From Chrysomallon squamiferum (Eukaryota; Animalia; Mollusca): 64,000 bases of DNA. Positions within the stretch are counted from its first letter, which is position 1, and each line of letters starts with the position of its first letter. Under the pieces are notes generated by a model. That model was not told the DNA's origin. It saw nothing but the letters and a program-made list of their open reading frames with translations, and ran no database searches. Position numbers and translations under genes: made by a program. Of the stretch, positions 1-53,424 are shown piece by piece. Location of the stretch: contig CM022671.1 of assembly GCA_012295275.1 (NCBI GenBank), positions 32,426,001-32,490,000 on the forward strand. Reading direction: 5' to 3'.

Positions 1-3000
1 TTTACTTGTGAAATTATGTGTTGGAGCTCCAGTGAGGCAGAGACGAAGTCATCACCAAACTCCGGTTTCACCAGCAGCACCAACCCCAGCGGCCAAAGCT
101 GTTGCCAAGGCTCTAACAAAACTTCTTGCTAATGGTCTGTTGTGGACTCCTCCACCATATGCTCCTGTGCCAAAGCTCAGGTATGTTTTTATTTCAAAGA
201 TTTATAATGTTGTTAGAAGAGTTTGATGAATATTGATTTAAGGAAATGTTTATGTTCCTTATATCCGATGTTTGCCATTCTATGATGATGAAAAGTTGAC
301 AAGCATATGTCTGAAAATAGGTTTGTAAGAAAAACTTTATCTGAGAGTGAATCAAAAGTACATATACTGCATATATGACTGGATTAATGTAGTAATCTGT
401 AAATGACATTTTAGCCTATTATAATAATTATTATTTATTTCTCTTAGAAAGAAGTTAAAATGAAAAAGAATATTCTTTTCAAAATGAAAAATAGCATTAC
501 AGTGAAAGCTTTTAGATTTTCAATTTTAGAAATCATTAGACACAGACTGTTAATTTTCTAGTTTGGTTTTGATGCATGATGTTGGGGGCAGCATATCTTC
601 ATTTCTTTTAATGTGTTTAAGAAAATTGTTTATTATTTAACAGGTGAAAAACAGCATTTTGTTTTGGGTGAAAATACATATTAATAAAAATGTTTGAAGA
701 CATAATTATAACTTACATTTACTGATGAATATCAGTAAAGTACACAGTGATGATTAAATAATAGTCAAGCACGTGTCTGAAACCTTTGAAACAAACTAAT
801 CTAAGTTGTACCACTTTGTTTAGTTATGTGTGTTTATAAGCTGTGCTTTGTTCTAAAATTTCTGGAAGCAGAGGATAATTTTTCATTAAATATTTAATTT
901 TTATTGTTTATGGCAATCATTTATGCATCTTTTCTAACTAAAAACATCTTATTTATTTAATTATTATTATTACAATTATTAAATTATATTTTTTTAAATT
1001 CTTATAACTTGTTTAAATTTTTTTATTATTATTTAACGGGTAAAAGAAAGCATTTTGTTTTTGGTGAAAATATATATTATAAATGAAAATGTTTGAAGAC
1101 ATAATTATAACTTACATTTGCTGGTGAATATTAATAAAGTACAAGTGATGATTAAATAATAGTCAAGCACATGTCTGATAGCTTTGACTGAAACAAACTT
1201 ATCTGAGTTGTACCACTTTATGTTTATAAGCAGTGTTTTGTTCTAAACTTTCTGAAAGCAGAGGATACTAATTTTCCATTAAATATTTAATTTTTGTTTA
1301 AGGTAATCATTTAGGTATCTTTTCTAATTAAAACATTTATTTAATTATTATTATTATTATTATTTTTTTTTTTTTTTTTAAATTCTTGTAACTTGAGGAA
1401 AAACTTTTTATTATTTAACAGGAAAAAGCATTTTGTTTTTGGTGAAAATACCTATTATTAATGAAAATGTTTGAAGACATAATTGTAACTTTCATTTACT
1501 GATGAATATCAGTAAAGTACACAGTGATGATTAAATAATAGTCAAGCACGTGTCTGAAACCTTTGACTGAAACAAACTAATCTGAGTTGTACCACTTTGT
1601 TTAATTATGTGTCTTTATAAGATGTGCTTTGTTCTAAAATTTCTGGAAGCAGAGGATAATAATTTTTCATTAAATACTGAATTTTTGTTGTTTACGGTAA
1701 TCATTAATGTATCTTTTCTAGCTAAATTTTTATTTATTTATTTTCATATTATTATTATTATTATTATTATTTTATTATTATTATTATTTAATTTTTTGTG
1801 AAATTCTGTATTAAACCAAAATACAGAAACTTGTCATAGAAATGTTCCATGAATATGTAATAAGTATTAAACAGACAGAACTCACGGTGATCAAATGCAG
1901 CATAAACATATTGCTCAAGCACATCTTTAATGTTACATGTTAAATTTTCAGGTTGACATTCCTGGTTTGTTCTGTGGGATTCACATCACCTATGTTGTTC
2001 CAGAAGAAGCAGCCCTATCATTTGATGTTGCAGATGTTTGAAGCATCAGGAGGCCAAGATGCTTTGTTCCAGTATGTTTGTGTATTTTAATTTTCAAAAC
2101 AAAGAAAATAACATAATTTACCATCAAGTATTTTTTTTTTTTTTTTTAATTATTTGAAGGAATGTTTCAGTGTCATTATAAATTAATTATAAATAACAAA
2201 TATTTAAGTCATTAACCATTTTCTCATTAAGGTTATAATTTTTCAGTGTTCTTTTTATGATTTTTGAAAAATTGTATTATAATTATTTTATTTTATTTCC
2301 TGGTACTCAAATGATGATTTAAATGTCAAGCACGTGTCTGATAAATGCTTTGATGAAACACATAATCTGAATTGTACCTTTATGACAAACTTTCAGAAAA
2401 ATGTTAAATACATATGTAATTAAGATAGGTTATAACATTTCTTATTATGAAAATTGGTAGTATTTAAAGGTATCATTAGTGTAGAAGCTGTATCAACATT
2501 TACAATAACTAAAAAAAAGCATGCATTTCATAATAAATTAAGGTAAACAAGTTCTCTGGTATTTCATTTTAATAAACATTTTATGTCAGAATGTTCTTAA
2601 ATGATACGATAAAATAATACCTAGAGTCATTGAAATGTTTCTTTTTTGTTGTTTTTCTTCAGAGATTTTTAATTTTATAATATTTAATTCTTTTTTTATT
2701 TTTTATATATAATGTATTTTGTAAATGTTTCTATTCTACTCTTCAGAGCTTTCTCATGGGCTTTGTCAATGGATGGGAAAGTTCCATTGACAGATGGACT
2801 GGAACATACAGAACTTCCAGGTTGGTGCCTTCTTCAGTTATTTTTTAACAGTATGTTAACTGATGTATAGGTAGCAGCACAATGTCTTGATTTCTTGCAC
2901 TCCATGATGATTATTTACAGACAAGCATATGTCTGAAAGTTTTTGAAAGACACCTTTATTACCTGAGAGTGACAAAAGAGTGTGCTACCTATAGAAACTA

Positions 3001-3076
3001 GAAATAGTTTATAGTTTGGTCTGTTTTTGTGCTTTAGTTTTATACTATTCACCTTTTTATTTCATTTTTTCCTGTT

Positions 3077-3138
<62 letters not shown>

Positions 3139-6100
3139 ACTTTAAAATATTTTGGTTGTTAAAAAATTGTTGTTTTTTTTGTGTTTGATTTAACTATTTT
3201 CATTAATAGATGGAAAGATAATTTCATCTGTTGTCAATCTTAGATAGGAGAAAGAGAAATTTGTTGATGAATTTTCAAGTTGTATTTTTTTATTTCTGTA
3301 CTAAAAATATGGTAGATGCTCAGTGATGATGAATTTGACAAGCATATATCTTAAGTATTTTGAAAGAAATATTTTGTCTGAGAGTTTACTGCCAAGTAAA
3401 ATGTGAATGATTTAAATCGTATACAACTCTTCATGTTTTCGTGTAGACATGTTTCATGTAGTTTTGTCAGATGTGGACAGTTGTTGATGTTATTCTTGTT
3501 ATCACTTATTCCATTTTGCACTTTACATAGGACATATTACTTGGTTATTTTTCATATATTCAGTGGAAAATATCAGAAATCCATTTCATTTCATTGGCAA
3601 GTTTTTCATAAAGCAACAGTGGATGATTTTTAAAAAGCTGAATTTTGTGTATTTGTCGATCAATATTCAGTTCAGTATGTTCAGTGATAAATGCTCAATG
3701 ATGATGAAATTGACAAGCATATGTCTTAAAATGTTTTGAAAGATAAATGTTTATCTGAGAGTATACAGTTGAAAAACAAAGCATTTAATAATGTGAATAG
3801 ATTTGGTTTCTATGTGTCTGCATGCATTGGAATTTGCTGGTTGATGGCTAACAAGTCTATATTTTTCCTTCATTCTTTTTCAGATGGATCAGGTGAATTT
3901 CTAGATGCCTGGCTGATGCTGGTAGAAAAGATGGTCAACCCCAAAACTGTGCTGGAATCAAACCACACCCTACCAACCAAGTCATCACAACCTGGTTTCA
4001 CTCCTTTCAGTCCAGTCCAGTATCTCATTAGCACTCAGAAGGTACGTTCTCATGGGTTTCAGTAGAACAATAATTGAAGTTTCTGGGTACATTTACCAGA
4101 GAATGGATATAAATTGCAATTTAAAGGATAAAATTAAACAGTATTTGGATTTATCATTTATATTGTATGAAGTATTTAATCATAATCTTAATATGACATC
4201 ACAGTGAATCTTTATCATTGTGTAAACAAACAGTTTTAAAATGATTGAGATGGAGCTTGTCATCTTTATAACAGACTTTAACAGTTTATCATGCAGAATT
4301 AGCAAAGCATAACAGCACATTACATTACTGCAGTACAAAGAAATTCTAGGATTTTAAGAAATTTTATTTATTGTGTATTTAAATTCAAAAACAGAGTGTG
4401 TGGGTAATAATATTTCAATGTAACTTTGATATTACTGTTTCATTTTGTGTTATAGGCTGCCTTTCATGCTGTGATGAATCTGTGGAACAAACAGCCTTTG
4501 AAGGTTTATGGAAGTCGAATGTCTGAATCCATCCTTGCAATACTTTGTCATATTATCAAAGGAGAAGGCATAATAAAGGTTTGTTTAATTATCTAATTTG
4601 ATAGCATTGAAATTCTTATTAAGAATTTAACTATTAATTTAACTTATTTTTTCATAATTAATTATTGTTATTTAAAAAGATTATCTCCAGTTAAAAGTAC
4701 TGAACATTATACATGGTTTGTTTACCACTTATGACTAAATTTGATAGACTTATTTTTAAAATGTATAATGCACACTTTCATAACTCATTTTATATTTTAT
4801 CCTCAAAAATATGTATATCTTTTTCAGCAGCCTCACTTAATCTGTTTTTTTTCCAGTTAATAATAATCTTTATACAGGACACATTATATTAATATCTTTT
4901 TTTTCTATTTTTTTTTTTTTTGAAGGAACAAATGGCAAAAGAAAAAGCCAGTCAAGAAACTGGTGATGGGGCTATTCCTTCTGCACCTCCACTAGTGGCA
5001 CAAGTTGCCAATAACCTGATCACAGCCTCAGTTCCATCTGCATCTCCTATCTCCGTCCAGAGACAAGAACCTGAAGTAAATGAAGGCTTCCTGCAACAGG
5101 TAGGCAGTGAAAAGATTAATGTATACAAATAAACTGTTACTGGAAAGTATTGGAAGGAAAATTCAAATTATTATGTTCTTGACCGACACAATAGTTTTAT
5201 TAGTATTATTATTGTTATTTAATATTATATTTTAAAGAGATTTTATTACTATATTTGTTAATGTTTAATTTTTTTAATACATTAAAAAAAATGGTTGTCA
5301 ATTTTAATAAACATTAACGTTCATGTCTGCTTTTCATTTTATTCCTGTTCTCAGAATTAGTATTTTATATCATTTATGTTCATTGTATTTTACTTGGTAA
5401 AAAGATACTCAGTGATGATGAAATAGACAAGCATATGTCTTAAAAAGTCTTGAAAGAAAATTTTATCCGAGAGTCTTCTGCCAGAAAAAAAGCCAGTTAT
5501 TAGTTTGAACAATTCTGACAAAATTTCTGTCATTAAGGCACACACACATATATTTACATGGGGTGATATTTATCATTTTCTGTTTGTTTGCAGCTTATTG
5601 ATATGGGTTTCAGTAGAGAACACGCCATTGAGGCACTGAGGCATACAACTACTCTGGAACAAGCCACAGACTACATTCTGTACCACCCTCCACCATCCTT
5701 ACCTGTAAATAACTTTTCTGAGAGTTTACACTGCACCCACACATTCCTGTTTATTTCAGTATACAACATACGTAATGTATTGTGAAACAGAATATAAATT
5801 AAAACTTAATAAATGCATTTTCAATTTTTGAGTTGACTGTATGCTTACCTGTTGTGATAACACCACAATTGGTAATACTACTACTACTACTAATAATAAT
5901 AATAATAAATAGTATATTAAAATCAGAAAAATATTTCTAATTGTTTATCTCAATGCTTTCAGCCCATTGCACAAGGTATTGACATGACTGAAGAAGATCA
6001 GATGATGAGAGCCATTGCCATGTCTTTGGGAGAGAATGTTGTAATGTCCACTGACCAGGTAAATATATCACTGCTTTTATTATTATTGTACTGAATATCT

Positions 6101-9100
6101 AAAATATTTAAAGGAATTAAAAAGTGATAAAAGAAAGATGATTGGGACACAGATATTCAAGGAAATAAATTTTTCAATCAGTTATTTTATTTCATCTTTG
6201 AGATTCAAAACCATTATTTGGAAAATGACTGTTGGATTAATATGAATTCAGAAATTTTGTATTTTATTGTACAAATCTTATTTTGTACAATTTCTATATA
6301 CTTAAAAATTATTATTATTTTTTTAAAAACATAGGAAGACACAAAGAAAGAAGAAGAAAAAGAACAAGAGAGTGAGACAGAGAAACAGGAAACTGAGGAA
6401 CCTCTAGACAAAGAAGTCCTGGACAACTTCACAGAAAACATGATACCAGGTTTGCTTTATTCCAGTACAGAAATACACACCATTACATAAACTTTGAATT
6501 CGTTCATTGTTACTATCCTCATTCTGTAATTTATTACTACACTTTTTCATTAATTATTGAAGAATGTTTTGTTCATAACTGCTAAGCCATATATCTGTCT
6601 TGGCCTTATACAGGTATTGAAATTGGTATAAAAGTTAATGAAAATGTCTTTGCAAAAACACCAAGAAACAACAAAAACATTAAAATGATATGTATTACTA
6701 ATTGAGCATAGTAGCCATTGTATAAAAGTTGAATGTTTATGTATTAATATTAGAGTGCATTAGCCATCTATACAATTCTAAACCTGTAAATTAATTGTTT
6801 AAAAGTATAATAATATACTAAATCGATTGCTTTCTTTTTAAAGGATGCATGAAATTGTTGGACACTCTGCCTGAAACAGTTTACCGAGTGTGTGATTTGA
6901 TAGTTGTGGTTACTCAGAGAAACGGGAATAACTGGAGGGATAAAACATTAGCAACACTAGTACAAGAGGTAAGTTAAAACATGACATGAAAAATAAAGTA
7001 AAGTGTAGCATATGTATTGATGCTGGAGTGTACATAGTCCCAAATCAGCCACCACAGGTTTTTGTACATTAAATGATCTTAATGGTAGCCTTTACTTGCT
7101 GAGATTTATTTATTTTTAATTTTTAATTTATTTACTTAACATCAAAGTAATTTCTGTAACTGTTTTAGTTTAACAACTGTAAGAAAGAAAGAAAAAAAAG
7201 ATTATAATATTCCAGAACCTGATATTGGTAACTTAACAGTTCTTAAAGTTTGTTAAGCTTGTCACTTGCAGGGACTTCCAAGAATGCCATATCCTTGTTA
7301 TAATATATTAACAAATGTTTTCTGAGGGGTTTTTGTTCTTCAAGAATAAGAAGTTTTGTTTAATAATTATATTTTCTCTTCAGATCAAAGCATTGGGGAC
7401 AAACCTATTGAAGAAACTTGTTGATGAAACAGCAACAAAAGAACATCTTGAGAAACTGTTCAATGATCCTCAGTGTGTCAAATTTGCTGTACGCCTTCAT
7501 CTGCTGAGTCTTTTGTTTGAGGTAAGTTTGTTTTAATTATAAATAAATTAAATATAACAAGACTTTATTATTAAGCTGTATTTTACTTGTCAAGAAATTG
7601 ATCTTTTATCTTTTTTTAATTTTTTTTATTTGGAGTACTGGCAATTAAGAAAAACCAAATTCAGCCATTATTTAATACATTATAACTAGCAAAATGTCGG
7701 TATTGATAAAAAAAAAATATATATATATATAAACAATTACAATGAAGTCAATAAAATATATTTACAACTCTGTTATTACTTCCACAAGAACTTTCACAGT
7801 AATATTTAATGTGGATGGAAGATTGTATCACGGTAAGGCTAAAAAGTTTGTTTTAACTTCATACTTTACTTTCAGGAAATGATGATGGCTTGTGCTGAAG
7901 CAGTAGAAGCTGAAAAGTTGGTTGATTTATTAGTCCAAGTTTTACATGCTGCGCAACTCTCACTAGCTCAGGTCAAAGATCTACCCACTCCTAAGTAAGA
8001 ATGCTCATACAATTTTATTCTGTATTTAGGATGGTTCAGGGTGGCAAAGCATTGCTTTTAAATCCTCATTTTTATGTTTATTTTATACATGTCATCTGCA
8101 AGTCAAAACTGGTATTATTTTATTTATGTCACATTAATATATAATTATATATTTTTTCCATTTAGTTATTAGCATCAAACTGCTTTTTTTATTATGTTAT
8201 TATTTTTTTTTATTTTTTTTATTTTAGTACTAAAAATGTCATTTTCCTTTTCCATTCCTTTCAGATGGCTTGCCCCATTACTGTTGATGTTAGATCTGTT
8301 TGAAAAAGTTTCTGTGATATCTAAGAGAAAAATTCAAGCTTTAGCTGTCATGGTAAGTATGGAAAACCAGAACCTTCTGTTTACTGAAAAAATGCATGAG
8401 AAATTTCTAAATTCAGTGGGAGAAAGAACCCTTAAGATTTCTAAAACAAAAACAAAAAGATATAAGTAATATAAATAAAATAAATAGATATGAAATATTT
8501 AGAAAAAAATGTATTATAATTGCAGAAGGACTGCCACACATGGAAATGGTTTGATGACAGCAGTGGTCGATGGTGTAAATACAGTTTGAGTAACAACAAA
8601 ACCATAGATGATGCATTCAGAGCAGGGGAGACCAGCATCAGGTTAGTGAAGTTCACAGTCCATTCGTTTTTGTTTTAGCTACTAATTAAAATGACAGTAA
8701 TGTTTACCTTTTAATAAATGTTAACAAGATGAAGATTACAGTAATGTTTCAGATGTCAAAAGACAATTTATAGGTATGAAGCTTTATGTGGTTGCATGCC
8801 TATTTTGAAATGTTAAAATTCAGGGAATTTTTTTAATGAATTATGTATAAAGAGGTTGATTATCTTTAAACCAGTTTGTTATTTTCTAGATTTCAGGCTG
8901 GAAGGAGAAGATATGCTGTTCAATTTGGATCAATGGTTCAGGTAGGTGTTATTTATTTATTTTGATATTTTCCAGATTTTTTCTTTTTTTTTCTTTTTTA
9001 GAGTGGCATATTTAAATTTCTTTACATTATTTTAACCAACCCCTGTCACCAGTAAATACTGATGCTGCTTTTCACATGTTATTATCTTGGCTTGTTGGAA

Positions 9101-12100
9101 CTGTAAAAAAAAATTAGTTCAAATGATTTAGACCTCTACAAAGATAGTTCAATCAATTTTATTACATTTGTATAACTTACTTATTTCTGTCTATTTCTTT
9201 TCTTTTTTAAAACCAGGTGAATGAAGAAACTGGAAACAGAAGGCCAATCATGTTGTCACTTCAGACAGCAGAAGAGAAACCACTGAAGGAAGATCAGAAG
9301 GATAACAACAGAAATGAGTTGGAAAGTGAGCCGCCAAAAGGTACTTTTCGATGTTGGTGAATGAAATACACAATGATGATAATTAAAAACATAACAGTGA
9401 ATTGCAGCTGTTAATGATGCTTATTAGGCATTCCATAGAATAAAGTATGCACCTATTGGTGTACCTGTACCATAGCAATAGATTGATAAAAAACAGATGA
9501 ACAATTTCACTTGGAGTGAAGTAATATTAAAGTGTTGTTAATCTTTTTATCCAGCAGATCGTAGAATCATAATGCTAATAACTTAACAGTACTGTTTTGA
9601 AAACATTTTAGCAAAGGTTCCTCGTGAATTATTCAGGGAAATCTGTCCTTTGACAGCAAAAGAAAATTTTGTTTGCTAAAAATAAAACTTGATTGTTAAA
9701 AAATACAAATAACAAAATTAAATTGATAAATGAAACCATTTTTAATTTCTATTCTGTGAAATTGTTTCTTTGTTGATATGATTCTCAACTTTTAATAATT
9801 TCCCTCAAAAGTCCATATCCTTATGAATTATTAAGAGAAAGCCAGCTGCAAACATCTGCTAGTACATATTTTATAAATAAATTTGAAGTTACATTTAATT
9901 TCAGATTGGGCTTTATCATATTTGTTTTATCTTCTAATTTGTAGAGGATAAGATGGAGACAGAATATGAAGAAGAACACAAACAAGAGCCAGTTCAGGTT
10001 ACAGGACTGAATGATGAACAGATCACAACAGTGATTAGGTAAAACTTTAAATATTAATATAAATACAACATCATATTTAATGTTTTTCAAGATGTAGAGA
10101 CTACTACAATTTTATATGAATGCTAAAAGCTCAAGAAAAACCAGTCTAACCTGTTTTTAATGTGAATAAATTAAATGACCTAAGTATTTTCTATTATTTT
10201 ATCTATTATCAGTTATTTCTGATTTTAAAATCTGGTAATAATAAAATCTCCAGATTAAACTTTTTGCATCTAGTATGTTAATATTTTTGTTTGTTTGTTT
10301 GGAATTGTTCTTTTTGTGGGTTTTTTTCTCATCCTGATCTAGATTTAAAAATTGTTTTTCGTCTTCTTAGGTCTATTGTTGCTCTGATTGGAATCCCAGT
10401 GGATCCAGACACTCTGCACGCAGCCCTGAGGCTCACTCTTCGAATCACAAGAGTACACAAGTATGCAGTATTGTTTGCAGAGCTTGGTGGTCCAAAACTA
10501 CTGCTGTCTTTAACACAGGCATCAGGCTTTCAAGGTTTCATTTCTCTGACCAATCTGATTTTCAGACATATTCTTGAAGAACCATCTTCACTGCGGTATT
10601 GCATGGAAAAGGTAAATGTTTTTGATATTGACATACAAGTTATTTTGTTAATTGGAAATATTGTTATAAGTATTATTATATTGTTTATACAGGTAATTAA
10701 AGTATTGTTTGGGGAATGCCGATTTATATAAAATATAAATTACAGTGACACACTGAATATTCAATATGACTTTTTAATTAATTTTCTTTGATTTTTAAAA
10801 ACGTTTATTTTGTTTTTGGTTTGCTTATTTTAAAATAGTTAAGCTTTGAACATTGATAACATTTTTTTTTTTACTCATTTTGTTTGTGTGTAATAATAAA
10901 ATAAATAAATATGTATATGTTCACTATAAAATGTAATGATACATAAAGAGTTCAGTGAGTTCAGTGAATGATTGTATTTAAACAATGTATATTTGTATTG
11001 CAGGTGATGAGAAGTGCCTGTAGTGGAATAGGCTCCAGTTTAAGTGGGGTGAACACTGGAAGCATTGGATCAAAAGAAATGCACTACATGTTCCGTGTGC
11101 TGGCCCCAGCTGCCTGCAGAAACTCAGAAATCTTCTCTGAGGCTACTAAAGAAACCCTGCAGATTGCACTGCCACCGCCAAGCAAAATTATTCGAGGTAT
11201 TTCTTTGTTCACAGTTCTTAATACAAGTAACTAGTAATGTATTCATTTATTTACACTGTAAGGAATATGTTACAAACCACCTAAGTACCTTTAATCATCA
11301 TTTTAACATCTCTGGCAATTTAGTGACTGTGTTACCAGTCATGATCTACTGAATTAAAACAGAATCTTGATTTCAATATGCCTGTTGGTAGTAAACAGGC
11401 TAATGGAAATTCTAACTGTTGGTTGTATTGTTAAAGATAAGCTGTTATTTTATTTGAAAATGTTTTGATTAACAGATGAGGATGAAGCTCGCTACACCGG
11501 GCCCAGTGCTCCACAGATTCTGAAATGTTCTCCAACAAAACACATTGCAATCCTCATAAATCAGTCAATCAAGGACGTTGTGTACGATCTTCTCAATGCA
11601 CTGATTGTTAAGGATAATGTCAAACAAGAAGATTGTAAGCACCAAGTTTTCTTCCTGTAATGAGCATTAAGTGTAATAGAAAGGAACTGTTACTGTTCTG
11701 ATTGTGATTGTGTAAAATTAGTGTTAAAACAATTTCTTAGTTGTTGTATTAATTTGTACTGTCTAATTTGTTCAAAATATGATTCTTTGGAACATACTGA
11801 TAAAATGATCTTAGGCTTAAATTTAAAAATAATTATAATAAAGATTTCTTAAGATGCAATAATTTTTTAGAAATTAATAAGAACCTTTGGATTTTTCATC
11901 ATCAATCTTCAGTAATAGTTTTGTATGAAATGTTTATAAACTTGGCAAACATGTTTTTAATACAATTATTTGTATTTTAAAAAAATATATATATATATAC
12001 ATACATACATGTATAAAACATAATTTTTTGTCTTCCTGTTGTAGTGAATGGTTTTGAACTGAAACCATCACAGACTCTCGCAGAAGCCATTTTAGAAGTG

Positions 12101-15100
12101 GTGAATGAAGTGAATCGAGAACTTGGAGACAGAAACACAGGACAGGTTGTCAACTTGACAAGTACAGCTCAGCCTCAGGAAGAGGATTCATTGGTAGATA
12201 GATTATTGATTATTTCAACAAAACAAAACGAATAACAATTGTTTAAATATTTTTTGGATTTTTTTTTTTTTTTTTGTTGTCAGGATACTTAGTGGTTTGT
12301 ACAAAAAGATCTAGATAATAATTTCCCAGTTGGGAGAAAATAATTATAAATTAAAGAAAAATTCAGATATTTAAACCTTACTTGTTTTTGTATTTATGCT
12401 TTTAAACAAAAAATTTATTGAAGAATTTTTTTTATTTTTTTTTTTTTTTTTTTTTTTGGATGCATTTTGATCAACATAATACAAGACTGACAAAAATCCC
12501 TCAAATAAACACTATTATTTTTATTGCATAGGCATCAACAGAGGCAGCAGCCACTGGTGAAAGTGAAGGTGATAAAGATCAGAAGGATGTGAAATCACTT
12601 GAAGATAACAAGAAGAGACATCCTCTGCTGCCGAAGTCAGCTCTGTTACGTTTGTTATCAGAAGTGATAAAGTCTTACGGAAGCTGCACTCACTTGATAA
12701 CTCAGCATACTTACTATGCTGGCCAGTCTGAAATGGTTCCTGAGGTACATAATTTTTCTTTACTTTTAAAGGAGAAAAGAGAATTTGACAGTTTCTGTTT
12801 AATGTTTCTTTCATAGTTGGTGGGTAATGTATTTTCTGCAGTTTTTTATCTACACAGATTTAAGAATAAGTTGCCTCAAAAATATTGTAATGTTGTTTTT
12901 CTAATAACAGGACTGTACAGTATTGGCCTTTGTGATGGATAACCTTCTGCACCAGAAACAACCAACAGGAGACAAAGACTGTCCAGATTTATCTCGTGTG
13001 TTTATTGCCAGTATTGCATCATGTAACTATTGCCCTGAAGCTCAGAACACTTTAGTAATGGAAGTAAAAAGTGCTCTACAGAGAGCACTTATACTGCCAG
13101 AAAGTCAAGAGAAACATTCGAGGATTCAGGCTCTGACAGGAATTATCAGCACCATAATGGAGGCCTGTCCTAGTCCAGGCCAAGTGCAGAACCAAGTATT
13201 CAAAGGACAGCAGAGTATTATGAACAACATAGTAAAAATTCTTATCAAACGTGGCCTTGTCACAGACCTTGCTCGAATTCCTCACAGTATTGATCTGTCT
13301 AGTCCATACATGGCAGCAACAATAAATGCTGCCCTAAAACCACTGGAGACATTGTCGCGCAGTGTCAATCAGCCTATGCAGAGTGTTGTTACCAAGCCTA
13401 AAGAATCGGGTACAGCAGAAGCGACAACTGTGGATCTAGGTGGAACAACGATTGCAGCCGAGACTCCTTTGACAGGTTAGTGAAAAATTAGTAAGAGAAT
13501 AGACATTATTTTTATATCTATACAAGGATTAAGATTTTAAAGCTTTCATCACAAAGATTTTATACTTGTTAACAGTTAAATCAATAAAAATAAGAAGGCA
13601 CCTTGACGAATTCGAAACGGTGCTATATTGTAATTTAACGAATAATTTATGTAAGATACCAGCAAGAATCTGACAGTGCCTAATGCAGCTGAGAATAATT
13701 TGGCAGTGGAAGATAATACCAACTGATTAAATCAGTAAAAACAACAATACAAAGTGACATTTTTTAATAACATTGATGAAACCACTATTAAATAATTTAT
13801 CAATATATTTTTAGATACTAATGAAACCCCAGCAGAGCCGAATGCAACTGAGAATAATGTGGCAATAGAAGATGTTTCTGACAGTTTGTATCTGGAAGAT
13901 ATAGAAGAAAGCACACATCATGAGACTGTGGAACCTGAACCTGACATTGGACACCATGTATGTATTAAATGTTAATCAGATTGTCAGTGTACAGTCAAAC
14001 ATACTTGTTGAATTAGGCTGAATAATACATCAGGGTCTGAATTGATATTCAACTATGTTTGTACTAAGGTATTCTTATATAATGATGACATACAATGCAA
14101 GAAATTATTAAAATCGTTTTGAAAATTCTATTTGGATTTTAAAAATAAAATCTTATGTCATAAAAACTGAAATGAAAAATCTGAGGAAATGTTAACATTT
14201 ACAACTCTTTGATATTCAGAAACACTGTTTTTAAATTCTTTGCTTCACGTTTTACTGCTTGTGCTAGGGACATTTTTATTTTTTACCTTTTTTTTGGTAA
14301 ATCACAAGCAAATTTAGACAGTATAGTGTGTTGTGAAACCGAACTGAGAAAATAAAAATATTTACTTGTTGCAGAATGAAAATCAGTTGGAGCAGGTGCT
14401 TGACACGTTATTACAAGGAAATGAAAATGCTGAATCACAGGTTCTGGCTGATGTTTCAATGAATGTTGGTATGTTGTCAAATTATTCACTTTTCATGCGT
14501 TTATTATCATGTTAGTAAACATTATTCATTGATAACAGAATAGATTAAGCAAAAATGCTGTATATCAGAAAAATAATGAATGCATAGGTAAGTGAATTAT
14601 TCCAAACCATCTACAATAAATATTTATTTTTGAAGGTACAAATTTTGAAGTTAAAGTATTTTTAATTTGGGTAAATTACATATTAAATACACAGTTGAAC
14701 CACCTGGGGAGAGAGGAGGGACAAAAAAACCTAAAAAAAAAAAAAAAACATCATGTGTGTAGCTTAATATGTTAGATAAACATACCTGACACTACTGAAA
14801 TAGATATTTAACACTGAAATACAAGTGGAAGTCAAATTAACAGGTGAAATTTTTTTTTTCTTTTTCTGTGATCTAGAATCAACTCCCACTACACAGACAG
14901 CAAGTGACTTCCATGATGTGATTATTGATGTAGAGTTTGAATCAGTTGATGTAGGACAGCACGACTCACAGATGGTCACACAGGAAATATCAGATGTTGA
15001 AGATGAAAATGATGTTCATGTTGAAGGTATGTATTATGCACTTATTATTGTTTTTTTGATATTAGACATGTTTCAGAAGAAGGCCCAGTGGTGTTACTAC

Positions 15101-16704
15101 AACAAAAAGAATTTTAAAATATATATACAGTGAAACATTTGTATCAATATTTTCAGGGATAAGACACTTTGAGAATTTGCTAAACATGTTGCAGTGAACA
15201 TTAGTAACACAATGTAATGTTTTGTTTATTGTAGATGAAGGAAATGTAGATGGTTCACCTGAAAGTGCTTCAGAAGCTGATGATGATGAAGATCCTGACA
15301 GAGAAGAACATGATGACGATGATGACGATGATGATGATGATGACGAAGATGATGAAGATGATGAGGTATTATTTTATTAATTTTTTTTCTAATTGAATTG
15401 AATTTTTATCTGCCTCAAGTAGAAATAATTATCCTACTTTTTGGTATGCATTTTAAAGGCCTTAGTATGAGGGAAAATGTTTCAAATAATATGACGACCA
15501 TTAAGCAAATTTCACTGATTTGTTGTTGCAGGGCTCTGATATGAATGCTGACGATGATGACTACTATGATTACCAGGATCGGGTAACAAACTCGATGGTT
15601 CCTGGTTATGAAGATGATCTTCTTTTCCACATGGAGGACATGTTTCCTTCCAATACATCAAGTTACAGAATTGCAGCTCCAAGCTACAGAATTGGTGGAG
15701 GTGGGTGTTCACTGACAACAGAATATGCTGTTCCTGTTTGGTTTCATTTACTAAATCAGTAATATGCATGACTTTTACCAGCAGTTCAGAAACTGATTTT
15801 TTTTAATTTTATATAGCACCTCTGCACCTTATTTTTAAAAAGCAGTTTGAATCAACAAATAAAAAGAAAAAAATTAAACCAAATATTTCAGAAATACAAC
15901 ACATTTCTCTTTACTTCATTTTAAACTTGTATTTAAAATTAAATTAAATTTAGATTTGGAGTTTCTTGTCTTTATAAATATCTTTTTTATTTATTATTAT
16001 TCCATAATACAACTTACCAACTACACATAAATGTAACTTTATTTTTTATTTTTTCTGTTTTTCTCATTTAAAAGCAAGACATAAAAATGATGTTCACAGA
16101 ATATAAATTCTAAATCTGTCGACCACCTTAATTTCATGCAAAATATCATGCATGCAATAAACAGAGGATTATGGCTTACCTCAAAATTTGTTTCTGTTGT
16201 TTGAAAGTGGGGAGATATTGAGAGTGCAGCACAATTTTGTTTGATATTAACAAAAATAACCTTTGGCACACATTGTGTTTCAGGTGGTGGTCAGCATATA
16301 ATATTTAATGATAATGCACAGATCAGAACTTATCAGTTGCCAGTGGCTCTTCATGACAATGATAATGGCAGTGATGGAAGTAAGTTACTGTCATGTTAAA
16401 AAAAAAAAAAAAAACATTTTTTAAAGTAACCAATACTAAAAAAAATAAAAATAAGAATATTTCAGAAATTTATATTAAGTAGTTTCTATTTTTTATTATA
16501 TTTACTATGGTTCGTGTCATTTTATTATCCAGATTTTTTATTTTAAATTTTAATTTTTAATTTTCGAAATTTTGTACAATATAATTCCATCAAAAGAATT
16601 TTAACATTAAATTTAAAGTACTTCATTTTTCAAATACATACAATAGTTACTTAATAGTTATGTTCCTAACAAAGATAATAAATTAAAGAAACTTCATAAA
16701 AAAC

Positions 16705-16744
<40 letters not shown>

Positions 16745-19700
16745 TCAATAAATAAATTTACTTCAAAAGATGTAATTAATTTTATTTATTTATTTATTAT
16801 TATTATTTTTTTTTTTTCCCCTAACAGTCCCAAGTTTGCCTCCTGCACCAAGCAGTGTGACAATGACCCATCCATTACTGGTTCGACAAACTGACCCACA
16901 TACTGTGATGGGTGTGGCAAGAGTGCATCGGGGAAATCGACAACGAGGCTCGTACAGACTGAACCCAACACAGACATTCCATGTTAATCTGCAAGGTGGA
17001 CGACAGCCCAATCCTCCAGTCATTCTACAGAGGTTAGTCACATGTGACATTAAATCAGATAAGACTTAGTCTTCATGTATGACTTGCAGCTGTTTGTACT
17101 TAATAAGAATTAGTTTCATGGAATTACAATTTAGGATAGTTTTTGTCAAAGGAATCTGGTTATGATGTTAACCATATCTGTATTGGCGTTCTGAAAATTG
17201 TCAAGAAATTAATAGATTATTATTGTTTTGTGTCAGTATTTTAATTCCCTTTTTTCTTAGAAGTATTTTTTGTTACTCCCTTTATATTTTTTTTAAATAA
17301 AATTGTTAAACATTTTTGTTATTAATATTTTTCTCTGTGTGTGTCTACTTTAGACTTCTTGGTCCAACAACAGCTTCTGACATTCTCCAGTTGACCGGTA
17401 CACTGACCACTCAGGCTGGAGGTCCAGCTCACACACGGGTCATCCTGGCAAATGATGATATGAGAGTATTTTCTCGACCAGAGGAAGAACTCTTTGAAGA
17501 CTTGTTTCAAGTAAGTGTCAGGGATAGATTGTTATTCTGAAAGGAGATTTTTGTTTTGTGTGCTAAGGAATTCTCCTTTGTTAATGTTTATTTTGCTATT
17601 TGTTTTTTTTGTGAGTGAGATATGTGGTTTGATCTATTGTGTTATATCATGTCCCAGGTTCCAAAACTAGGGGAAGCTGAATTTATTACCTTCAGGTTTA
17701 AGTAATAGATAACTTGTTTTTGTTTTGTATTTTTTCCCATTTTCTTTTTAATAAATACAAAAATATTTACTTAATGTTTTTTCTTCTTTTTTTTTGTCCT
17801 GACTTGCATTGTGGTTACAGTGGCCAATAGATTTTGTTAAACAGAATTAATAGTAATGAATTAGATTCAAATAACAGTATATCTGATTTTGAATCAGGGG
17901 GAAATGTAGGTGTTTGTTGTCATCTTAAACTTACTTCAGACTAGAGATCCTTACAAGTATTTAATATTATAACAAATATTGCTTTAGTCAAATAACTAAT
18001 AGCTTCTTATTGTTTTCTTTGAAGGAGAATTACCAAGAAAGTGGAGCTGTTTCAGGTTCTGGTGTTTTGTCTTGTGTTCCTTCCACTCTGCAACGATGGA
18101 CTGAAGAATCCAAAGTTTTAGATGGAGACAGTGTACACAACTGTGTGACAGGTTAGTCACTTCTTAATATTGCTGTTGCATTTAAACTAGTTCAGTGAAT
18201 AGACAAATTTTTCCTTAAACTGATCATTCTGTAATTAAAACTATTCCTCCCCAACCAAAAAAAAAACAATTATAATAAATATAATTTTTAACTTTTCTTT
18301 TTAAAAAAAATTTTTTTTTTTTTTTTTTATTACCTCTAGATCAAAGGCAATGTCATGGCTTGGGAGCCTTGAATCGTTGTCTTAAAATACATAAAAGTTG
18401 TATACAAATAATGACATAAAAACAGTTTTTTGGTTTTTTAAAAATCTCTGTTTGCTCCTACAATTAATTTCAGTAATCTAAATAATGATGATGGTTTAAA
18501 AATAAAGAATTAATAAAATAAAATTTAAAATACAAATTAAAAAATTAAAAATTTAAAATGATTGAAAATTATGTTAATTTAATATTTTAGGTATTTATAA
18601 AACCATTATATTCACTTATGGAAAATTTCAAGTTACAAAGGGAGACATTAGTAATTGTAGCTTAAAAAACATTTGACGACACTTTCCACCAACTGCTTTT
18701 GATGTGCTTGGTCTGCATTATGTCAGTTGAAATAAATTTTTAAAATTATTATTACAACAGCTTTAAAACCAGACATAATAAAGTGCCTTGTTAAAAGACG
18801 TGATGATGAGCTTGCAGAGAGGCGTGAGAAACGCAGAAAAGCAGCGGAAGAGGAAGGAAAGGATAACACAAAAGAAGTAAACAATCCTGCAGGAGCTACT
18901 ACAACCACAACAGTACTTATGTTTTACTTAATTTTTCTTTCTTTGCATTTCTTTTTTTGAAAAACAAATTAATCTATATTTTGAAATTTTTTCATGTTAC
19001 TTGCACTGAACTTATGAAGGGAAAAACATCAATATTATATCAATACTTTCTTGCCATAAATGATAAGGATACTTACAAATTCTGTTTGAATTTATATAAT
19101 TTAGCACTAAAGTTATATATTATTTTTTTTTTTAATATTTATTTATTTAAATTTTTTTGTCTTTGTCTGTCTACATATTTTCATCAAAAAAGATTATTTA
19201 TTGCACTTATAATAAATTCTCCCTTTTTTCTAGCCTTTTGCAACAACATCAGCAGCTGAGCCATTGACCTCAACACCTTTGTCCATTTCATCTGCAACAA
19301 CACCTTCAGCAGAAAATATGTCACGGCAGATCAGTAAGCATTTTGTACAGTATTTTATCATATATGTCATCACTCTTAATAAATTGTTGTTTGGTGAATC
19401 ACATGTCTCTTGGTCGTTGTTTTAGAGAAATATAATTTTTATTGTTGTAGTAAACATCTGTAATTGTATTATATAATTTAATTAAATTTCAGGTGTCAGT
19501 GAAGCTGTTGCGGCTGCCGAACGTCTTGCCTCAGCCATGGTTGAAGAAGTATTGTCAACACCTATGACCACAGCCATTGCAAGCACAGCAAGTGAAGCCC
19601 TGACAACACCATCCACCTCCAACACAACAACCACTGTGACCAGTACCAGCATCATTCAGACATCGTGTGCTGTGGCTCTTGCAGAAATACACGATTCCAT

Positions 19701-22580
19701 AGCGAGTGCAGCCAGCCAGAGTGCAGGAGCACAAACTTTAACCACTCCAGCCCAGCCTCTACCAATTACTGCATCGCAAGCTCCAGTGCCTCAGCCAAGA
19801 CGGTGTGTAGAATATTTAGTAGCTTTGTATGTGTTTGAGTGTGGGAAGCTGATAATATTTTACTTTATTTCACTTGTTTATTTATTATTTTAATTTCTGA
19901 TTTAATTTAATGAGAGAGATCAGATTCAAACTGATTCATAACAAAGTAATGTTTCTGCTTTTTTATCCCACCAAAGAAGAAATACAATTTTTTTTTATAA
20001 ACTTTTGTTTTAAAGATTTGTAGTCTGAACATGAAAATGTATGTATATGGAGATGCAGTTTATAGAGCACAGATGAGAGTTTTTTCCTTGCATATTTTGT
20101 TTACTGAATTAAAAAAAAAAAAATTCAAACAAGGCTTTTTGATTTTATTTCCAGAACACTTGCACAGAATGCCTCAATGTCCCCAACAAGTTTGGCATCT
20201 CTTCTGATGTTTGGTGATGAACGACCTATGGATTCCTCAGTTACTTCAACAGCTACTCCACCAACGACGTGTCCTGTGTCAGGTTCCAGAGTTGGGGAGA
20301 TGACAACAAGCACACCAACATCCAGTACTGACTCAGGTACATGTGCCCAGCCAACTAGTGAAACTGCTGTCACTCCAGAAGAAGTTTCTAACATCACTAA
20401 CTCAGATGCAGTTACTGTCCATTCTTCTGCCTCAGGTTAGTTTTATTTTTATTTTATTATTATAATCATTTTTTTATTTATTTAATTAATTAAATTTTAT
20501 TTTTAACCAATTTTTATTTATTTATTTATTTCAGGTGGTATGTTATTACATAGCAAATACATTATAATAATTTACTTACTATTTATTTATTATAACATTT
20601 GAAAAATCATTTCCATCCAATGCAATTAACTTAAGAAAATTCTGTATGTGAAATGTTTTGTGGATATATGTGTGAAGATTTTGGAAATCGTCCTTTCTGG
20701 CAGTTAATTTCTGAAATACCAAAAGGTTGACATTTAAATAAATTTACGGAACTTCATTATAATTTTATGAGGGAAAATAATTCAGGAGACCATAAGTTCA
20801 ACAATTTCTGATACAGTTGCCAAGATGGTTTAGTTTACAGTATTTTTTTTATTTTTCGTTTTTATTTATTTATTATTTTATTTTATTATTATTACTGTTT
20901 TTTTACAGGAAGTACTGATGAGCTGATACCTGCAAGTAATGCAGTTACCAGTGCTCTTGTTACATCGGGCACAACGACAATGTCCAACAACCTGCACAGT
21001 CTTGGAGCTCTCATAGCAGAGGTTGATGAGCTGATTGGACGGTCTGCTGAAACAACCACTACAACCTCAACCACCATTCAGAGTTCATCTCAGCAAAACA
21101 TGTTTGGAGGTTTGTTCTCTTTGTATTTTGTCTATCATCAGCCACCTGTTTTCTGTTGTAACGTGGTTTTACTGAAGTTGTCGTTTGGAAACATATTTCA
21201 GTATCAAAGCAGTTAAAGGAAATCACATCAAACAGACCTCTTCAGAATGTAGGTTAATTTGTATTTATCTGAAGGAATATAGTTTTCTGCTTAACTTACT
21301 GAATTAAACTAAATCTCTTAAATTTTGGTAGGTAAAAATTAGCATGCACAACTAACAGTTACTAAATAATAGTTCAAGAATGTTCATGTGAAAATGAGCG
21401 GGATGTTTAGTAAACATTTTTTGTTGTTTTTCCTGCAGAGGGTGTAGATCCATCATTTCTGGCAGCGCTGCCAGAAAACATTCGCCAGGAAGTGATAGCA
21501 GAACAGTTGAGACTGCAGCGCATTCAGCAGAGAGCACAGCAGCAGGCACAGAACACAGAGGCCATTGGAGGCATGGAAGTGAATCCAGAATTCCTCGCTG
21601 CTCTTCCACCAGCTATACAAGAAGAGGTTAGTGGCTTCTGCAGAATTAATAAACAACATTATTTTTAATATTTATTAGAAATATTAGTCACAATTTTGTA
21701 CTAGAGAGGAATGTGTTTTGAATGCATTTCCAAGAGTTCTAAAGTCTCTTGCCTCATAGCCTATCTTGCTTCTGTGGCAAATATTATTAATATAGTGAAC
21801 TTCAGAGCTTCAGAATATATGACTTTTTATTATTATTATTACTTTTTTTATTTATTTTTATTATTTTTAATTTTTTTTATTTTTATTATTTTTAATTTTT
21901 TTAATTTTAATTTTTAATTTTTTGTATTTTTTTAAAATTTTTGTTTTATTAATGTTCGCTTAACAGGTTCTTGCACAGCAGAGAGCTGAACAGAATCGTC
22001 TGGCCGCCCAGCAGCAGGCACCAGCCAACCCAGATGCTCCGGTCGATCCCGCCAGTTTTTTTGCAACTCTTCCGACGTCACTGAGGCAGCAGGTGCTGGC
22101 TGACATGGATGACAGCATGTTGGCAGTGTTACCATCAGACCTGGCCACCGAGGCACAGGAGCTGCGACGAGAATTTGAAGATCGACACCGCAGACTGATG
22201 CAGGAGCGGCTGTTTGCACAAGCCGGTGCAGCATCTTTATCTGCTATATTGCGTCATTCAGGTGCTCGAGAAAGAGCAGGTGTGAGCAAGGGGCAAACTT
22301 GGATCAGGGCACAATAATAAAAGCTAAAACCAGGGAAGGGGGTGGTATTTTTGGTGATAAATATATTTATAAGAAATTGGGCCAGTCAAATTTGAAGTTA
22401 ACTGTTGTTAAATACTCTGAGGATTGAGATTAATAATAGCACATTCACTTTCTTTTTGCAGTAAAGTGGCTGTGATCTGATTGGTTTATGTTACCAGTTT
22501 GTACTGATGGCTGCATGTTTGTAGCTTTAAAATCATGATTTATATTGATCAAAGCACAAGCTGGATAAATATAAAGAACA

Positions 22581-22631
<51 letters not shown>

Positions 22632-25600
22632 TTAAAATAGAAACCACAATTAAAACATACAAAAAACCAAACTCCCTTTTTACATTTCAATATTTTTAAA
22701 ATTTTATCTGTGTTTGCTTTACATGTATGTTGATGTCACATTCAGTGTAACTGTATTAGATGATAGGTATTTGTTGCCTCAAAAGGATTCCATAACTAGC
22801 AACACATATTATTGTTGATACCTTGTCATCAGTGTTGTAACGTATAGTTGTGTATCAGAATATGTTTATAAAACCATTAAATAATGGTGCAAGAGAAACT
22901 GCTTCCACTTCTCCTTCAAAAATTTGTGGTATTCTGAATAAAATGATACCCAGGTGAAGCAGATTAAGTTGGAAACACAGACAATAAATATAGATTATAC
23001 ATGTCTGTCTTTGGTAAACGTAGGTGAACTAAGATTAATAAGAGACAATATTTGAAGCCAGAATTGCCCTTTTCTTACCACCTGCTCAATTTATTTATAT
23101 ATTAGCTTTTGTTGCCTGCTTTTTTATTTTCTCTACCAGAAAATTATTCTGCAAAAAGCACTTGCCTTGTTTGTATTATTTTTTGTTAATAATACACCAA
23201 AATACAGAAATTTCTGCATATTCCTGCCACTGAAGCTTTTCATTTTGATTTAAAACTGATAATGATATTACAAAAGTTATTTCAACATGGTAATTTCATT
23301 TCTAAATCTTAATTTGAAATAAAATTTTGTTTTGTGTGTCAAGCTTTAGCAAATTAAGTAGAGGTTTAAGGAAGATTGTTTCCCGCTAAATATGTGTATG
23401 TGTGTGTGTTTATCTTTCTGTTTTGGGCCTACTGTAAATGTTGTTAATGGATCCTAATAGATGATTAAAGTAAAATTTAGCACTGACCAGACATTTTATG
23501 ATATCAGTAATCATAAATTCTTTGTTGCATGCCTTAAAGATTTGAATGTGCATTTTAGCAACAGGTTGGCCTATTGATGTTGGATACCTTTTTTGTAAAG
23601 TAATTCTGTTATTTAATCACTTTTTTTTTTTTTTTTTATGATAAACAGTTCTGATGATGTAAAATTGACAAGCATATGTCTTAAAATATTTTGAAAGATA
23701 AATTTTTATCTGAAAGCAGCAACTTAATGCAGATATGTTTCTTTCAGAACATTTTTTTAAATTAATTAAAACAAATTAAAATTCATTAGACTTACCAGAC
23801 ATGTTTTGCCAAATATAAACATAAGTCAGTTTCAATGTGAATCAGTGTGCAAGTATCCAAAAATAAAGAACTAGTTTTAGTTTATAACTCTAGTGTTTTT
23901 AGTTGATTAACAGTCTTAATCAAAATATTTATATCAAAAGAATACATGCACAAACAAATAAAACAGAAGTAATGTTAAAGGAACATTAAAAATAATACAT
24001 CTTAAATCTGTTATTGCAGGTCTTGCTGGTCGCCTTGGAACAAGGTATGCAATAAGAGCACCTCGAGGAGGGAGTCAGTGGGCATGGGGATCAGGACGCC
24101 TTGGAGTGCCAGCCAACAACAACAGCAGCACACTTAAAATGCGAGGTCGTCATCTCTTAGACCATGAGGCTCTCACCTGTCTTCTGGTGCTTCTTTTCAT
24201 TGATGAACCCAAAATAAACACCAATCGTTTCCACAGAGTATTGAGAAATTTGTGTTACCATGGTCCAACACGTGCATGGGTAATGCAGGCACTCTTGTCA
24301 ATTCTGCAGAAAACCAGTGAATGTAAAATTATAGAATCTGATGATCGAGGGAAAAATAAAAAGATAAAGGGTGTCCCTATGCAGACAGACTCTCCATTGT
24401 CTGTCAAAAGTGATATCAGGAATCAGACTTCTTGGTTGTCGGTCAGCTTAGAAGCTGCACTAGGGTGCCGTGCCAATGTCTTTCAAATTTCACGAAATGC
24501 TGGCAAAAAGCATGCCAATTCACCCAGTTCTAATGTTAGTATTCATATGCAGGCTGCCCCTGCTGTGTGTAGACATGTACTGGATACGTTGATATCTCTA
24601 GCCAAAGTATTTCCAAGTCAGTTTTTCCCTAGTTCTAAAGCAAAGGAAGTTCAAAAGTGTGATGAAGAGAAAGAGGCCGACAGCGGTAAACAGAAACAGA
24701 CTTCAGGTGGATTGTCTAGTCCTCAGGCGAGTCCTCGAGTTGCAAACAGGATGGATTCAAAACAGGACTCCAAAGAAGGAAAGAATGACACAGATTTCTG
24801 GGACATTCTGGTTAGACTTGACAGTGCATCTAGTAGTCGGAAAGGCAAGGGTGTAGCTAAAATGCATGGCGATGGTGATATGAATTGTGTGGACTATTCC
24901 AGATCTCCACTTGGTCATCTGATGAGTATGTTGTCACACCCGGTGATTCGCAAGAGTCAGGTCCTCACAGACCGACTGATCAGACTGCTAGCTTTGGTTT
25001 CCACATCCATGCCAGAAGCTATGCAGGCCACCAAGGCCAACATTCTGAATTCCTCAACAGCTCGCACAAGTACAGCAGCATCAGGACTTAATCCATCTGT
25101 GATGCTGCATCCCATTCTCCAACCACCAAAACCATTAGAAGGTATAGATTACAATAAAAATGAAATATGTTTCTAAGAATTTAAAAACCATATAAATTAT
25201 AATTTACCATAGATATCAGACAAGCACATCTTTAAAGAATCAGTTTTACATCTAAACAATTTTTCCTTTAGTTTCTTTCATTTTCTTTTTTTGTTTGTTT
25301 TTGTCAAAGGTGTGTACAAATCTAACTCTTATTTATTAAATACTGTATAAATATCATTCATTAATATGAAAATGATAGTGTCATTACATTATAAAATTTT
25401 AAAAACATTCTGATGGAATTGTAATTTCTTATTTATTTTCCCTCTCTAAAACGGTGGGGTGGTGGTGATGTATTTACAGTTTATTGAAAAAAAAAAATAT
25501 TTCTATTAAATTAAAGAACCCGAAGCAAGCAAGTCAGTGAAGGAAGAAAAAGTGCCTGAGATTGATGAAGAACCAGTTTTGAAAGATGAACTGCAGTTGG

Positions 25601-35669: not shown

Positions 35670-53424
<17,755 letters not shown>

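Follow-up and report, generated by a model that had tools for sequence, protein, structure and literature searches.

How did ten small nucleolar RNA (snoRNA) genes come to share the introns of one protein-coding gene, and do all ten guide the same modification? The locus that raises this question is a 64,000-nt stretch of the genome of the mollusc Chrysomallon squamiferum (assembly GCA_012295275.1, contig CM022671.1, positions 32,426,001 to 32,490,000, forward strand), referred to here as the window. An earlier note on this DNA had proposed that HUWE1 introns host ten box C/D snoRNA genes of the U27 (SNORD27, snR74) family. On balance, it is probable that the ten are of two kinds: six U27 genes (type A), predicted to target A27/28 of 18S ribosomal RNA (rRNA), and four genes (type B) that likely derive from U27 and would target the 28S rRNA position equivalent to human G4607.

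Ten box C/D snoRNA genes in HUWE1 introns

The ten elements were found where the earlier note had placed them, on the plus strand, which is the HUWE1 sense strand. They are genuine box C/D snoRNA genes, and all are intronic. Each carries a box C, a guide of 11 to 13 nt, a D' box, a C'-like box, and a D box. A search for the pattern of box C, spacer, guide, and D' returned 14 overlapping matches that correspond to the ten loci, whereas 100 dinucleotide shuffles gave no match. With a sequence model trained on the ten copies and one metagenomic gene (L084, described below), the same ten scored 54 to 73 bits, and the next best place in the 64 kb had 14 bits. Such a model recovers its own ten copies by construction and is informative solely on further copies, of which there were none across the window.

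The identity of the host as HUWE1 was borne out by tblastn, by the Pfam WWE and HECT domains, and by splice joints in RNA. The portion of HUWE1 in the window begins near residue 1114 in Haliotis numbering and ends with the C-terminal HECT exon; the 5' part of the gene lies upstream. Among 27 full-length homologues tried, those of Haliotis (71% identity) and Patella (69%) were closest, followed by bivalves and a chiton (64 to 68%); by similarity, the host is a gastropod HUWE1. The RNA evidence consists of assembled contigs of long-RNA libraries from four runs, all belonging to one study. Nine of the ten copies lie in introns with GT..AG ends confirmed in all four runs; introns 181-1951, 2072-2746, 2821-3883, and 5100-5593 hold four, one, three, and one copy, respectively. 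The intron that holds copy 23647, before the large exon at 24020, is delimited by tblastn exon hits only. That one intron has four copies and another has three is a feature absent from the earlier account.

Boxes C (RUGAUGA) and D (CUGA) are both canonical in seven copies, the exceptions being 740, 5407, and 23647, and the D' box reads CTTA in 3318, 3691, 5407, and 23647. Terminal ends are paired in the predicted folds of eight copies and unpaired in 740 and 23647. Compared with shuffled sequences, copy 276 alone folded better than all (z -3.15), and the remaining copies had z values of -2.0 to +1.2. The terminal stems of types A and B are out of register in the alignment. The description of intact boxes and stems in all ten is thus not confirmed, given the deviations in 740, 5407, and 23647 and the CTTA D' box of four copies. 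At copy 5407, one RNA contig (run X1, depth 5.1) carries a change at 5439, in the D' box.

The proposed Rfam covariance search gave a mixed outcome, with no match at gathering level and, at E-value level, SNORD27 matches for the six type A copies (35.5 to 51.6 bits, individual scores in Table 1; E 1e-6 to 0.011). Nine SNORD27-type loci from metagenomes, rescanned in the same way, scored 30 to 48 bits, likewise under the gathering score of 52, which suggests that this cut-off is strict for distant taxa. Two other Rfam matches were rejected: a SNORD87 match at 17444 (E 6.9) lies within an exon, and a mir-297 match at 42633-42705 (42 of 90 bits), the sole Rfam match in 30-64 kb, is an artefact on a CA microsatellite.

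The repeat families confirm a recent triplication of the segment with copies 740, 1139, and 1517 (unit of ~390 nt), and the three copies have a flank identity of 0.79 to 0.92. Outside the triplication, the flanks are dissimilar, as had been claimed, and the bodies are kept: for 42 of the 45 copy pairs, identity over 100-nt flanks is 0.54 to 0.67, compared with 0.57 to 0.64 in shuffles, and body identity is 0.64 to 0.88.

Two guide classes and their predicted rRNA targets

Box C/D snoRNAs direct methylation to the base opposite the fifth nucleotide ahead of D or D' (PMC7038934). Judged by the guide before D', the ten copies form two classes. Type A (276, 2898, 3318, 3691, 5407, and 23647) reads GACAAGCATAT(G/A)T, and type B (740, 1139, 1517, and 2302) reads GTCAAGCAC(A/G)TGT. 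The assignment of all ten to U27/SNORD27 with the guide GACAAGCATATG is thus right for six copies and wrong for four, which have GTCAAGCAC[A/G]TG in its place.

Type A copies share with SNORD27 (RF00086) the guide before D', the length, and the box layout. All six have U at +5, and they pair with the 18S site CAUAUGCUUGUC, taken as the complement of the Rfam consensus guide, at 12 of 12 positions in five copies and 11 of 12 in copy 3318. The same letters also open the 18S record of the bivalve Perna, and the 18S 5' end with the target CATATGCTTGTC that the earlier note had called for is thereby seen in a mollusc (PMC6730533; possibly primer-derived). Type A almost certainly guides 18S A27, and its copies would thus direct methylation of A27/28, a position listed as methylated in fly, human, yeast, Arabidopsis, Xenopus, and Dictyostelium (PMC11014333).

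All four type B copies mismatch the 18S site at +5 (C faces A) and at +12 (T faces U). They pair instead at 12 of 12 positions, including three to four G-U pairs, with the human 28S SNORD121 site Gm4607, taken from Fig. S5 of PMC1636440, and the pair at +5 is a Watson-Crick C-G. The two rRNA sites look alike (18S CAUAUGCUUGUC and 28S GUAUGUGCUUGG), and even the unchanged U27 guide forms 11 of the 12 pairs with the human 28S site. Changes of +5 U>C and +12 A>U would complete the 28S pairing and abolish the 18S match, and the C at +5, facing G, would place a methyl group on a 28S G. Scoring a fit as full pairing with a Watson-Crick pair at +5, and counting post hoc, after the match had been seen, we found that 2 of 495 two-letter and 14 of 4,455 three-letter variants of the U27 guide (+2 to +12) fit the 28S site; all four type B guides are among them. 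We hold with good confidence that the 28S G corresponding to human G4607 (fly 28S position 3594) is the target of type B. In the 28S rRNA of this species, the predicted target at this position would read CAYGUGCUUGRC/UAUGUGCUUGGC. Motif scans for rRNA targets returned 0, 0, and 1 non-rRNA match in viral contigs and ten prokaryotic chance matches in species genomes, and the jellyfish and fly supplements yielded no sequence matches to the target motif.

The type B copies might alternatively be ordinary U27 copies, drifting as spares that have lost any guide role. Their match to the SNORD27 model is weak (22.8 to 26.4 bits in three of the four), three of the four stem from one recent triplication, and the D box of 740 is broken. 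Copy 2302 speaks otherwise: its 13-nt guide is identical to those of 740 and 1517 even though its flanks are at shuffle level, and this retention of the triplet's guide amid unrelated flanks points to selection on the changed guide. Since, in addition, 1139, 1517, and 2302 show no damage in boxes or stems and the two changes perfect a second documented methylation site, which 0.3 to 0.4% of variants do, we regard drift as very unlikely. It is also highly improbable that type B acts on some other RNA (another site in rRNA or in a small nuclear RNA, or an mRNA) and matches 28S rRNA incidentally. The three to four G-U pairs would make the duplex weaker than that of SNORD121 on the human site, and splicing targets are known for human SNORD27 (PMC7038934), but the match spans the full 12 nt, places the correct G at +5, and falls on a site methylated by a near-identical guide.

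For three of the type B copies, the top Rfam family is SNORD121A (26.1 to 34.5 bits, cut-off 44). We rejected this score as proof of family membership, since the plain SNORD27 gene of L084 (41.6 bits with SNORD27) reaches 40.6 bits with SNORD121A, above every type B copy, and we would class type B as working like SNORD121 and not as a member of that family. The likeness to SNORD121A/B (RF01191) lies in a D' guide with C at +5 that matches the same human site at 12 of 12 positions and in intragenic duplicates within one host. The differences are that the host here is a gastropod HUWE1, with an intron shared with U27, where the vertebrate host is UBAP2, and that the guide departs from that of SNORD121 at +2, +12, and +13 (and at +4 in three copies).

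Table 1. HUWE1 features of the window, in order of position.
Feature	Position	Strand	Evidence
HUWE1 gene	1..32249	+	tblastn 43 hits, 71% identity; WWE and HECT Pfam domains; RNA joints
GT-AG intron with four snoRNA genes (one type A, three type B)	181..1951	+	joint in 4/4 RNA runs
Type A copy (SNORD27/U27), boxes all canonical	276/277..348	+	SNORD27 45.5 bits; 12/12 with 18S site
Tandem triplication, unit of ~390 nt, one type B copy per unit	598..1800	+	repeat families D5, D8, D9, D12-D15, D17
Type B copy, SNORD121-like guide; D = CTAA and C' 5 nt shorter by deletion; likely in decay	740..811	+	
Type B copy, intact; U27 guide with +5 T>C and +12 A>T	1139..1213	+	SNORD121A 34.5 vs SNORD27 26.4 bits
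Type B copy, intact	1517..1592	+	SNORD121A 26.1 vs SNORD27 25.6 bits
GT-AG intron with one type B copy	2072..2746	+	joint in 4/4 RNA runs
Type B copy, lone in intron 2072-2746; C' and D' perfect	2302..2378	+	SNORD121A 29.8 bits; no SNORD27 match at E<=1
GT-AG intron with three type A copies	2821..3883	+	joint in 4/4 RNA runs
Type A copy, canonical boxes, best Rfam match	2898..2971	+	SNORD27 51.6 bits, cut-off 52
Type A copy, D' = CTTA, +2 = A (11/12 with 18S site)	3318..3385	+	SNORD27 35.5 bits
Type A copy, D' = CTTA, ~120 nt from 3' splice site	3691..3762	+	SNORD27 41.8 bits
GT-AG intron with one type A copy	5100..5593	+	joint in 4/4 RNA runs
Type A copy, lone in intron 5100-5593; D = CCGA, D' = CTTA; possibly decaying	5407..5474	+	SNORD27 37.8 bits
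Type A copy in distant intron (~22262-24019); C = CTGATGA, no terminal stem in fold	23647..23717	+	SNORD27 36.0 bits

Origin of type B and age of HUWE1 hosting

Type B guides are two to three letters from the local U27 guide, and three of the four copies share an intron with a type A copy. At +2 and +13 they retain the G of U27, whereas SNORD121 as printed for human carries A and U at these positions. The D'-D halves of type B are also closer to local type A than, on average, to foreign SNORD27-like genes. Copies of C/D snoRNA genes typically arise in cis within one host (PMC8178906). We lean toward an origin of type B from U27 by local duplication, in which a U27 duplicate would have acquired two or three point changes.

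The main competing account is that type B is a true SNORD121 orthologue, inherited from the bilaterian ancestor, that still targets the same 28S G. On this account it may have arisen long ago from U27 inside HUWE1, with a later move to UBAP2 in vertebrates and a loss in flies. SNORD121A is the best Rfam family for three of the four type B copies, the C at +5 and the predicted site are common to human SNORD121, type B is well separated from type A in the tree, U27 hosting by HUWE1 appears old (see L084 below), and host changes of snoRNAs are frequent (PMC3511168). The taxonomic record and the guide itself argue the other way. In the tables consulted, all species with a Gm4607 entry are vertebrates (human, mouse, Xenopus, and chicken). 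One of them (PMC11014333) has Gm4607/4637 entries for the first three species but none for fly, yeast, Arabidopsis, or Dictyostelium, and a chicken SNORD121 guide is reported in UBAP2 (PMC2653536). No such guide appeared in the zebrafish guide list (PMC7668251 file 4; 12 of its 17 files searched), and by eye no convincing type B gene was present among 120 metagenome matches, which came from 47 of 64 parts and include few animals. With the guide also so close to local U27, down to the U27 letters at +2 and +13, we consider orthology rather unlikely.

Several points weigh against the reading of ten genes of two kinds with type B derived from U27. It extends beyond what was seen directly, namely genes, boxes, guides, intron positions, and host splicing, to mature 70-nt RNAs and methylation, which are predicted. 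The type B target in particular is a prediction resting on the human 28S site, and the SNORD121A model, as the L084 score illustrates, does not discriminate. None of the ten copies reaches an Rfam gathering cut-off, the best falling at 51.6 bits against 52 for SNORD27, and 740, 5407, and 23647 have damaged boxes. Similarity of the D'-D halves of type B is 0.26 to 0.32 with local type A and on average 0.06 to 0.14 with 46 foreign SNORD27-like genes, of which one to four are as close to type B as local type A is; this closeness is confounded by shared AT-richness and by the distance of the comparison taxa. In a tree of 56 rows, type B forms one clade (95/89), but it is not nested inside type A, and 29 of 52 forks are open. 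Finally, the claim of an older host rests on one short contig, 1 of 51 SNORD27-like loci.

That contig came from a metagenome scan for the shared pattern, which covered 47 of 64 parts and gave 120 loci, 51 of them with SNORD27-like genes bearing a D box (55 genes in all). In L084, a SNORD27 gene (258-345, minus strand) lies in HUWE1 sense orientation in the HUWE1 intron immediately ahead of the WWE exon. The exons on the two sides of this intron correspond to window exons 8260-8358 (61% identity) and 8541-8666 (67%), the latter encoding the WWE domain; the window intron matching that of L084 (8353-8525) has no snoRNA. The WWE domain of L084 reads WCNY, as in amphioxus and chiton (Lingula has WCNC), and not WCKY, as in the window and in all ten of the named snail and bivalve homologues listed, so that L084 likely comes from outside snails and bivalves. 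As L084 has SNORD27 in a HUWE1 intron, HUWE1 hosting is probably older than this species, and the association of HUWE1 with U27 is probably old. Independent colonisation of HUWE1 is possible but less likely than inheritance. The lineage-specific host switch put forward in the earlier note is weakened by the occurrence of L084 in a different animal, while the amplification may still be lineage-specific. HUWE1 would then likely have hosted U27 before this lineage arose, with later copies spread between and within introns by cis-recombination. Among the other metagenome loci, none matched HUWE1; of the 120, 40 came with no more than ~300 nt of flank, and many probably belong to organisms other than animals.

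Human SNORD27 resides in SNHG1, and HUWE1 is there the host of let-7f-2 and miR-98. SNHG1 and the fly host Uhg1 are non-coding, whereas HUWE1 codes for protein. The array further differs from known SNORD27 genes in having at least six copies, up to three per intron, four of them with D' = CTTA and all under the gathering score. Three U27 genes are reported in fly, two of them shown in Uhg1 (PMC11014333), and host mobility of snoRNAs is documented (PMC3511168, PMC6984369). HUWE1 is absent from the fly supplement of PMC11014333 and from the main texts of PMC6984369 and PMC3511168. Judged by title and the start of the abstract, none of the open-access papers surveyed, PMC1636440, PMC8336889, PMC2653536, and PMC12205218 among them, deals with this HUWE1-snoRNA arrangement.

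The same scan also returned linked SNORD27-like genes. On one contig (L009:1369-2669), a SNORD70-like gene and two SNORD27-like ones lie within 1.3 kb. L106, L052, and L117 have tandems of two to three SNORD27-like genes ~90 nt apart with a common conserved 3' guide, possibly double-guide polycistronic clusters. SNORD27-like pairs lie 2.3 kb (L107/L108) and 1.5 kb (L114/L115) apart, each on a single contig.

Introns with several snoRNA genes

Animals are described as following a 'one-gene-per-intron' rule, with polycistronic clusters in plants and, less so, in fly (PMC7038934, PMC8178906). Two or more snoRNA genes in one intron are the prerequisite for sno-lncRNAs (long noncoding transcripts that end in snoRNAs; PMC4234469, PMC10557570), known from the Prader-Willi region and RPL13A, and introns 181-1951 and 2821-3883 of the major splice form have this arrangement. 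The known examples are mammalian and depend on alternative splicing; here, up to four snoRNA genes lie in a constitutive intron, and it is the genes that are seen. As in cis-duplicated C/D families under 'constrained drift', the copies lie within one broadly expressed host (PMC8178906, PMC3511168). In human families each copy has its own intron (PMC8178906), and here the pairing of host and snoRNA family recurs in two distant animals.

The snoRNAs would be released from spliced HUWE1 introns to guide ribose methylation. The likeliest processing is that exonucleases trim the debranched intron to the outermost assembled small nucleolar ribonucleoprotein, so that an intron would yield either a single snoRNA or a single long RNA ending in snoRNAs, and the inner copies would be redundant. 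Release by endonucleases is known as another route (PMC10557570).

A further route, compatible with two kinds of guide, is that hidden splicing at cryptic exons or recursive AG/GT sites splits these introns into one lariat per snoRNA. An AG/GT does lie at 643/644, upstream of copy 740 by 100 nt, and the first base of one intronic RNA contig (depth 2.4) is 644. The two other repeat units have not kept this AG/GT, its donor scores under the threshold, the 9 acceptor-like sites in the 1.77 kb of 181-1951 do not exceed the density in introns free of snoRNAs (4.9 per kb), and no internal splice joints occur in any of the four RNA runs, whose contigs drop rare forms. We consider hidden splicing improbable.

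Between copies 3318 and 3691, 63 nt (3495-3557) are replaced by four letters in RNA runs X2-X4 and in run X5. This skip (3494/3558) was rejected as a splice; its ends are CT..AT, and it is present in X5, which has DNA-like intron coverage. It is likely a common allele that shortens the spacer.

Intronic contigs within 3366-3766 occur in three of the four runs, and not in the deepest, at depths of 3.6 to 9 compared with 17 to 38 for the mRNA contig. They would fit an RNA bounded by 3318 and 3691, but contigs cannot show ends, and we take them as a lead only. Among the contig pieces listed, 9 of 10 overlap a copy (5.9 expected, P ~0.03), or 6 of 7 distinct places (P ~0.11). Intronic contigs were left uncounted as expression evidence, as DNA may be present in the libraries.

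Two further genes are visible in the window. Directly downstream of HUWE1, at ~39900-48500 (plus strand), lies a gene, likely TRIM37, whose exons include B-box-like and MATH ones (Pfam MATH_2, E 3e-5, short of the cut-off); with HUWE1 it would form a tandem of two ubiquitin ligases. At 61945-62952 (minus strand) is the last exon, with a long tail, of a PP2C phosphatase gene (Pfam PF00481).

The uncommon features of the locus are a SNORD121-like predicted guide outside vertebrates, several snoRNAs per constitutive intron, and a host-snoRNA pair in two distant animals; the surprise is limited by the familiarity of the parts and the chemistry. Because all ten genes escape the Rfam cut-offs, other arrays of this sort have likely gone unannotated. 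HUWE1 can be named as a snoRNA host in two distant animals, and the locus offers a natural case of three to four snoRNAs per constitutive intron for studying intron processing in animals. The origin of new rRNA modification sites is usually inferred across distant genomes, and here a parent-type and a retargeted guide lie in the same intron, two letters apart. The arrangement would illustrate the likely rise of a new guide next to its parent, and it suggests a kinship of SNORD27 and SNORD121, neither of which Rfam assigns to a clan, via look-alike targets. More tentatively, HUWE1 may be an ancient animal host of U27 and the locus may preserve the birth of SNORD121 activity, together with constitutive snoRNA-ended long RNAs in an invertebrate (for example, 3318-3763). 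If that is true, the Gm4607 mark would date to the bilaterian ancestor or would have arisen twice by the same short path.

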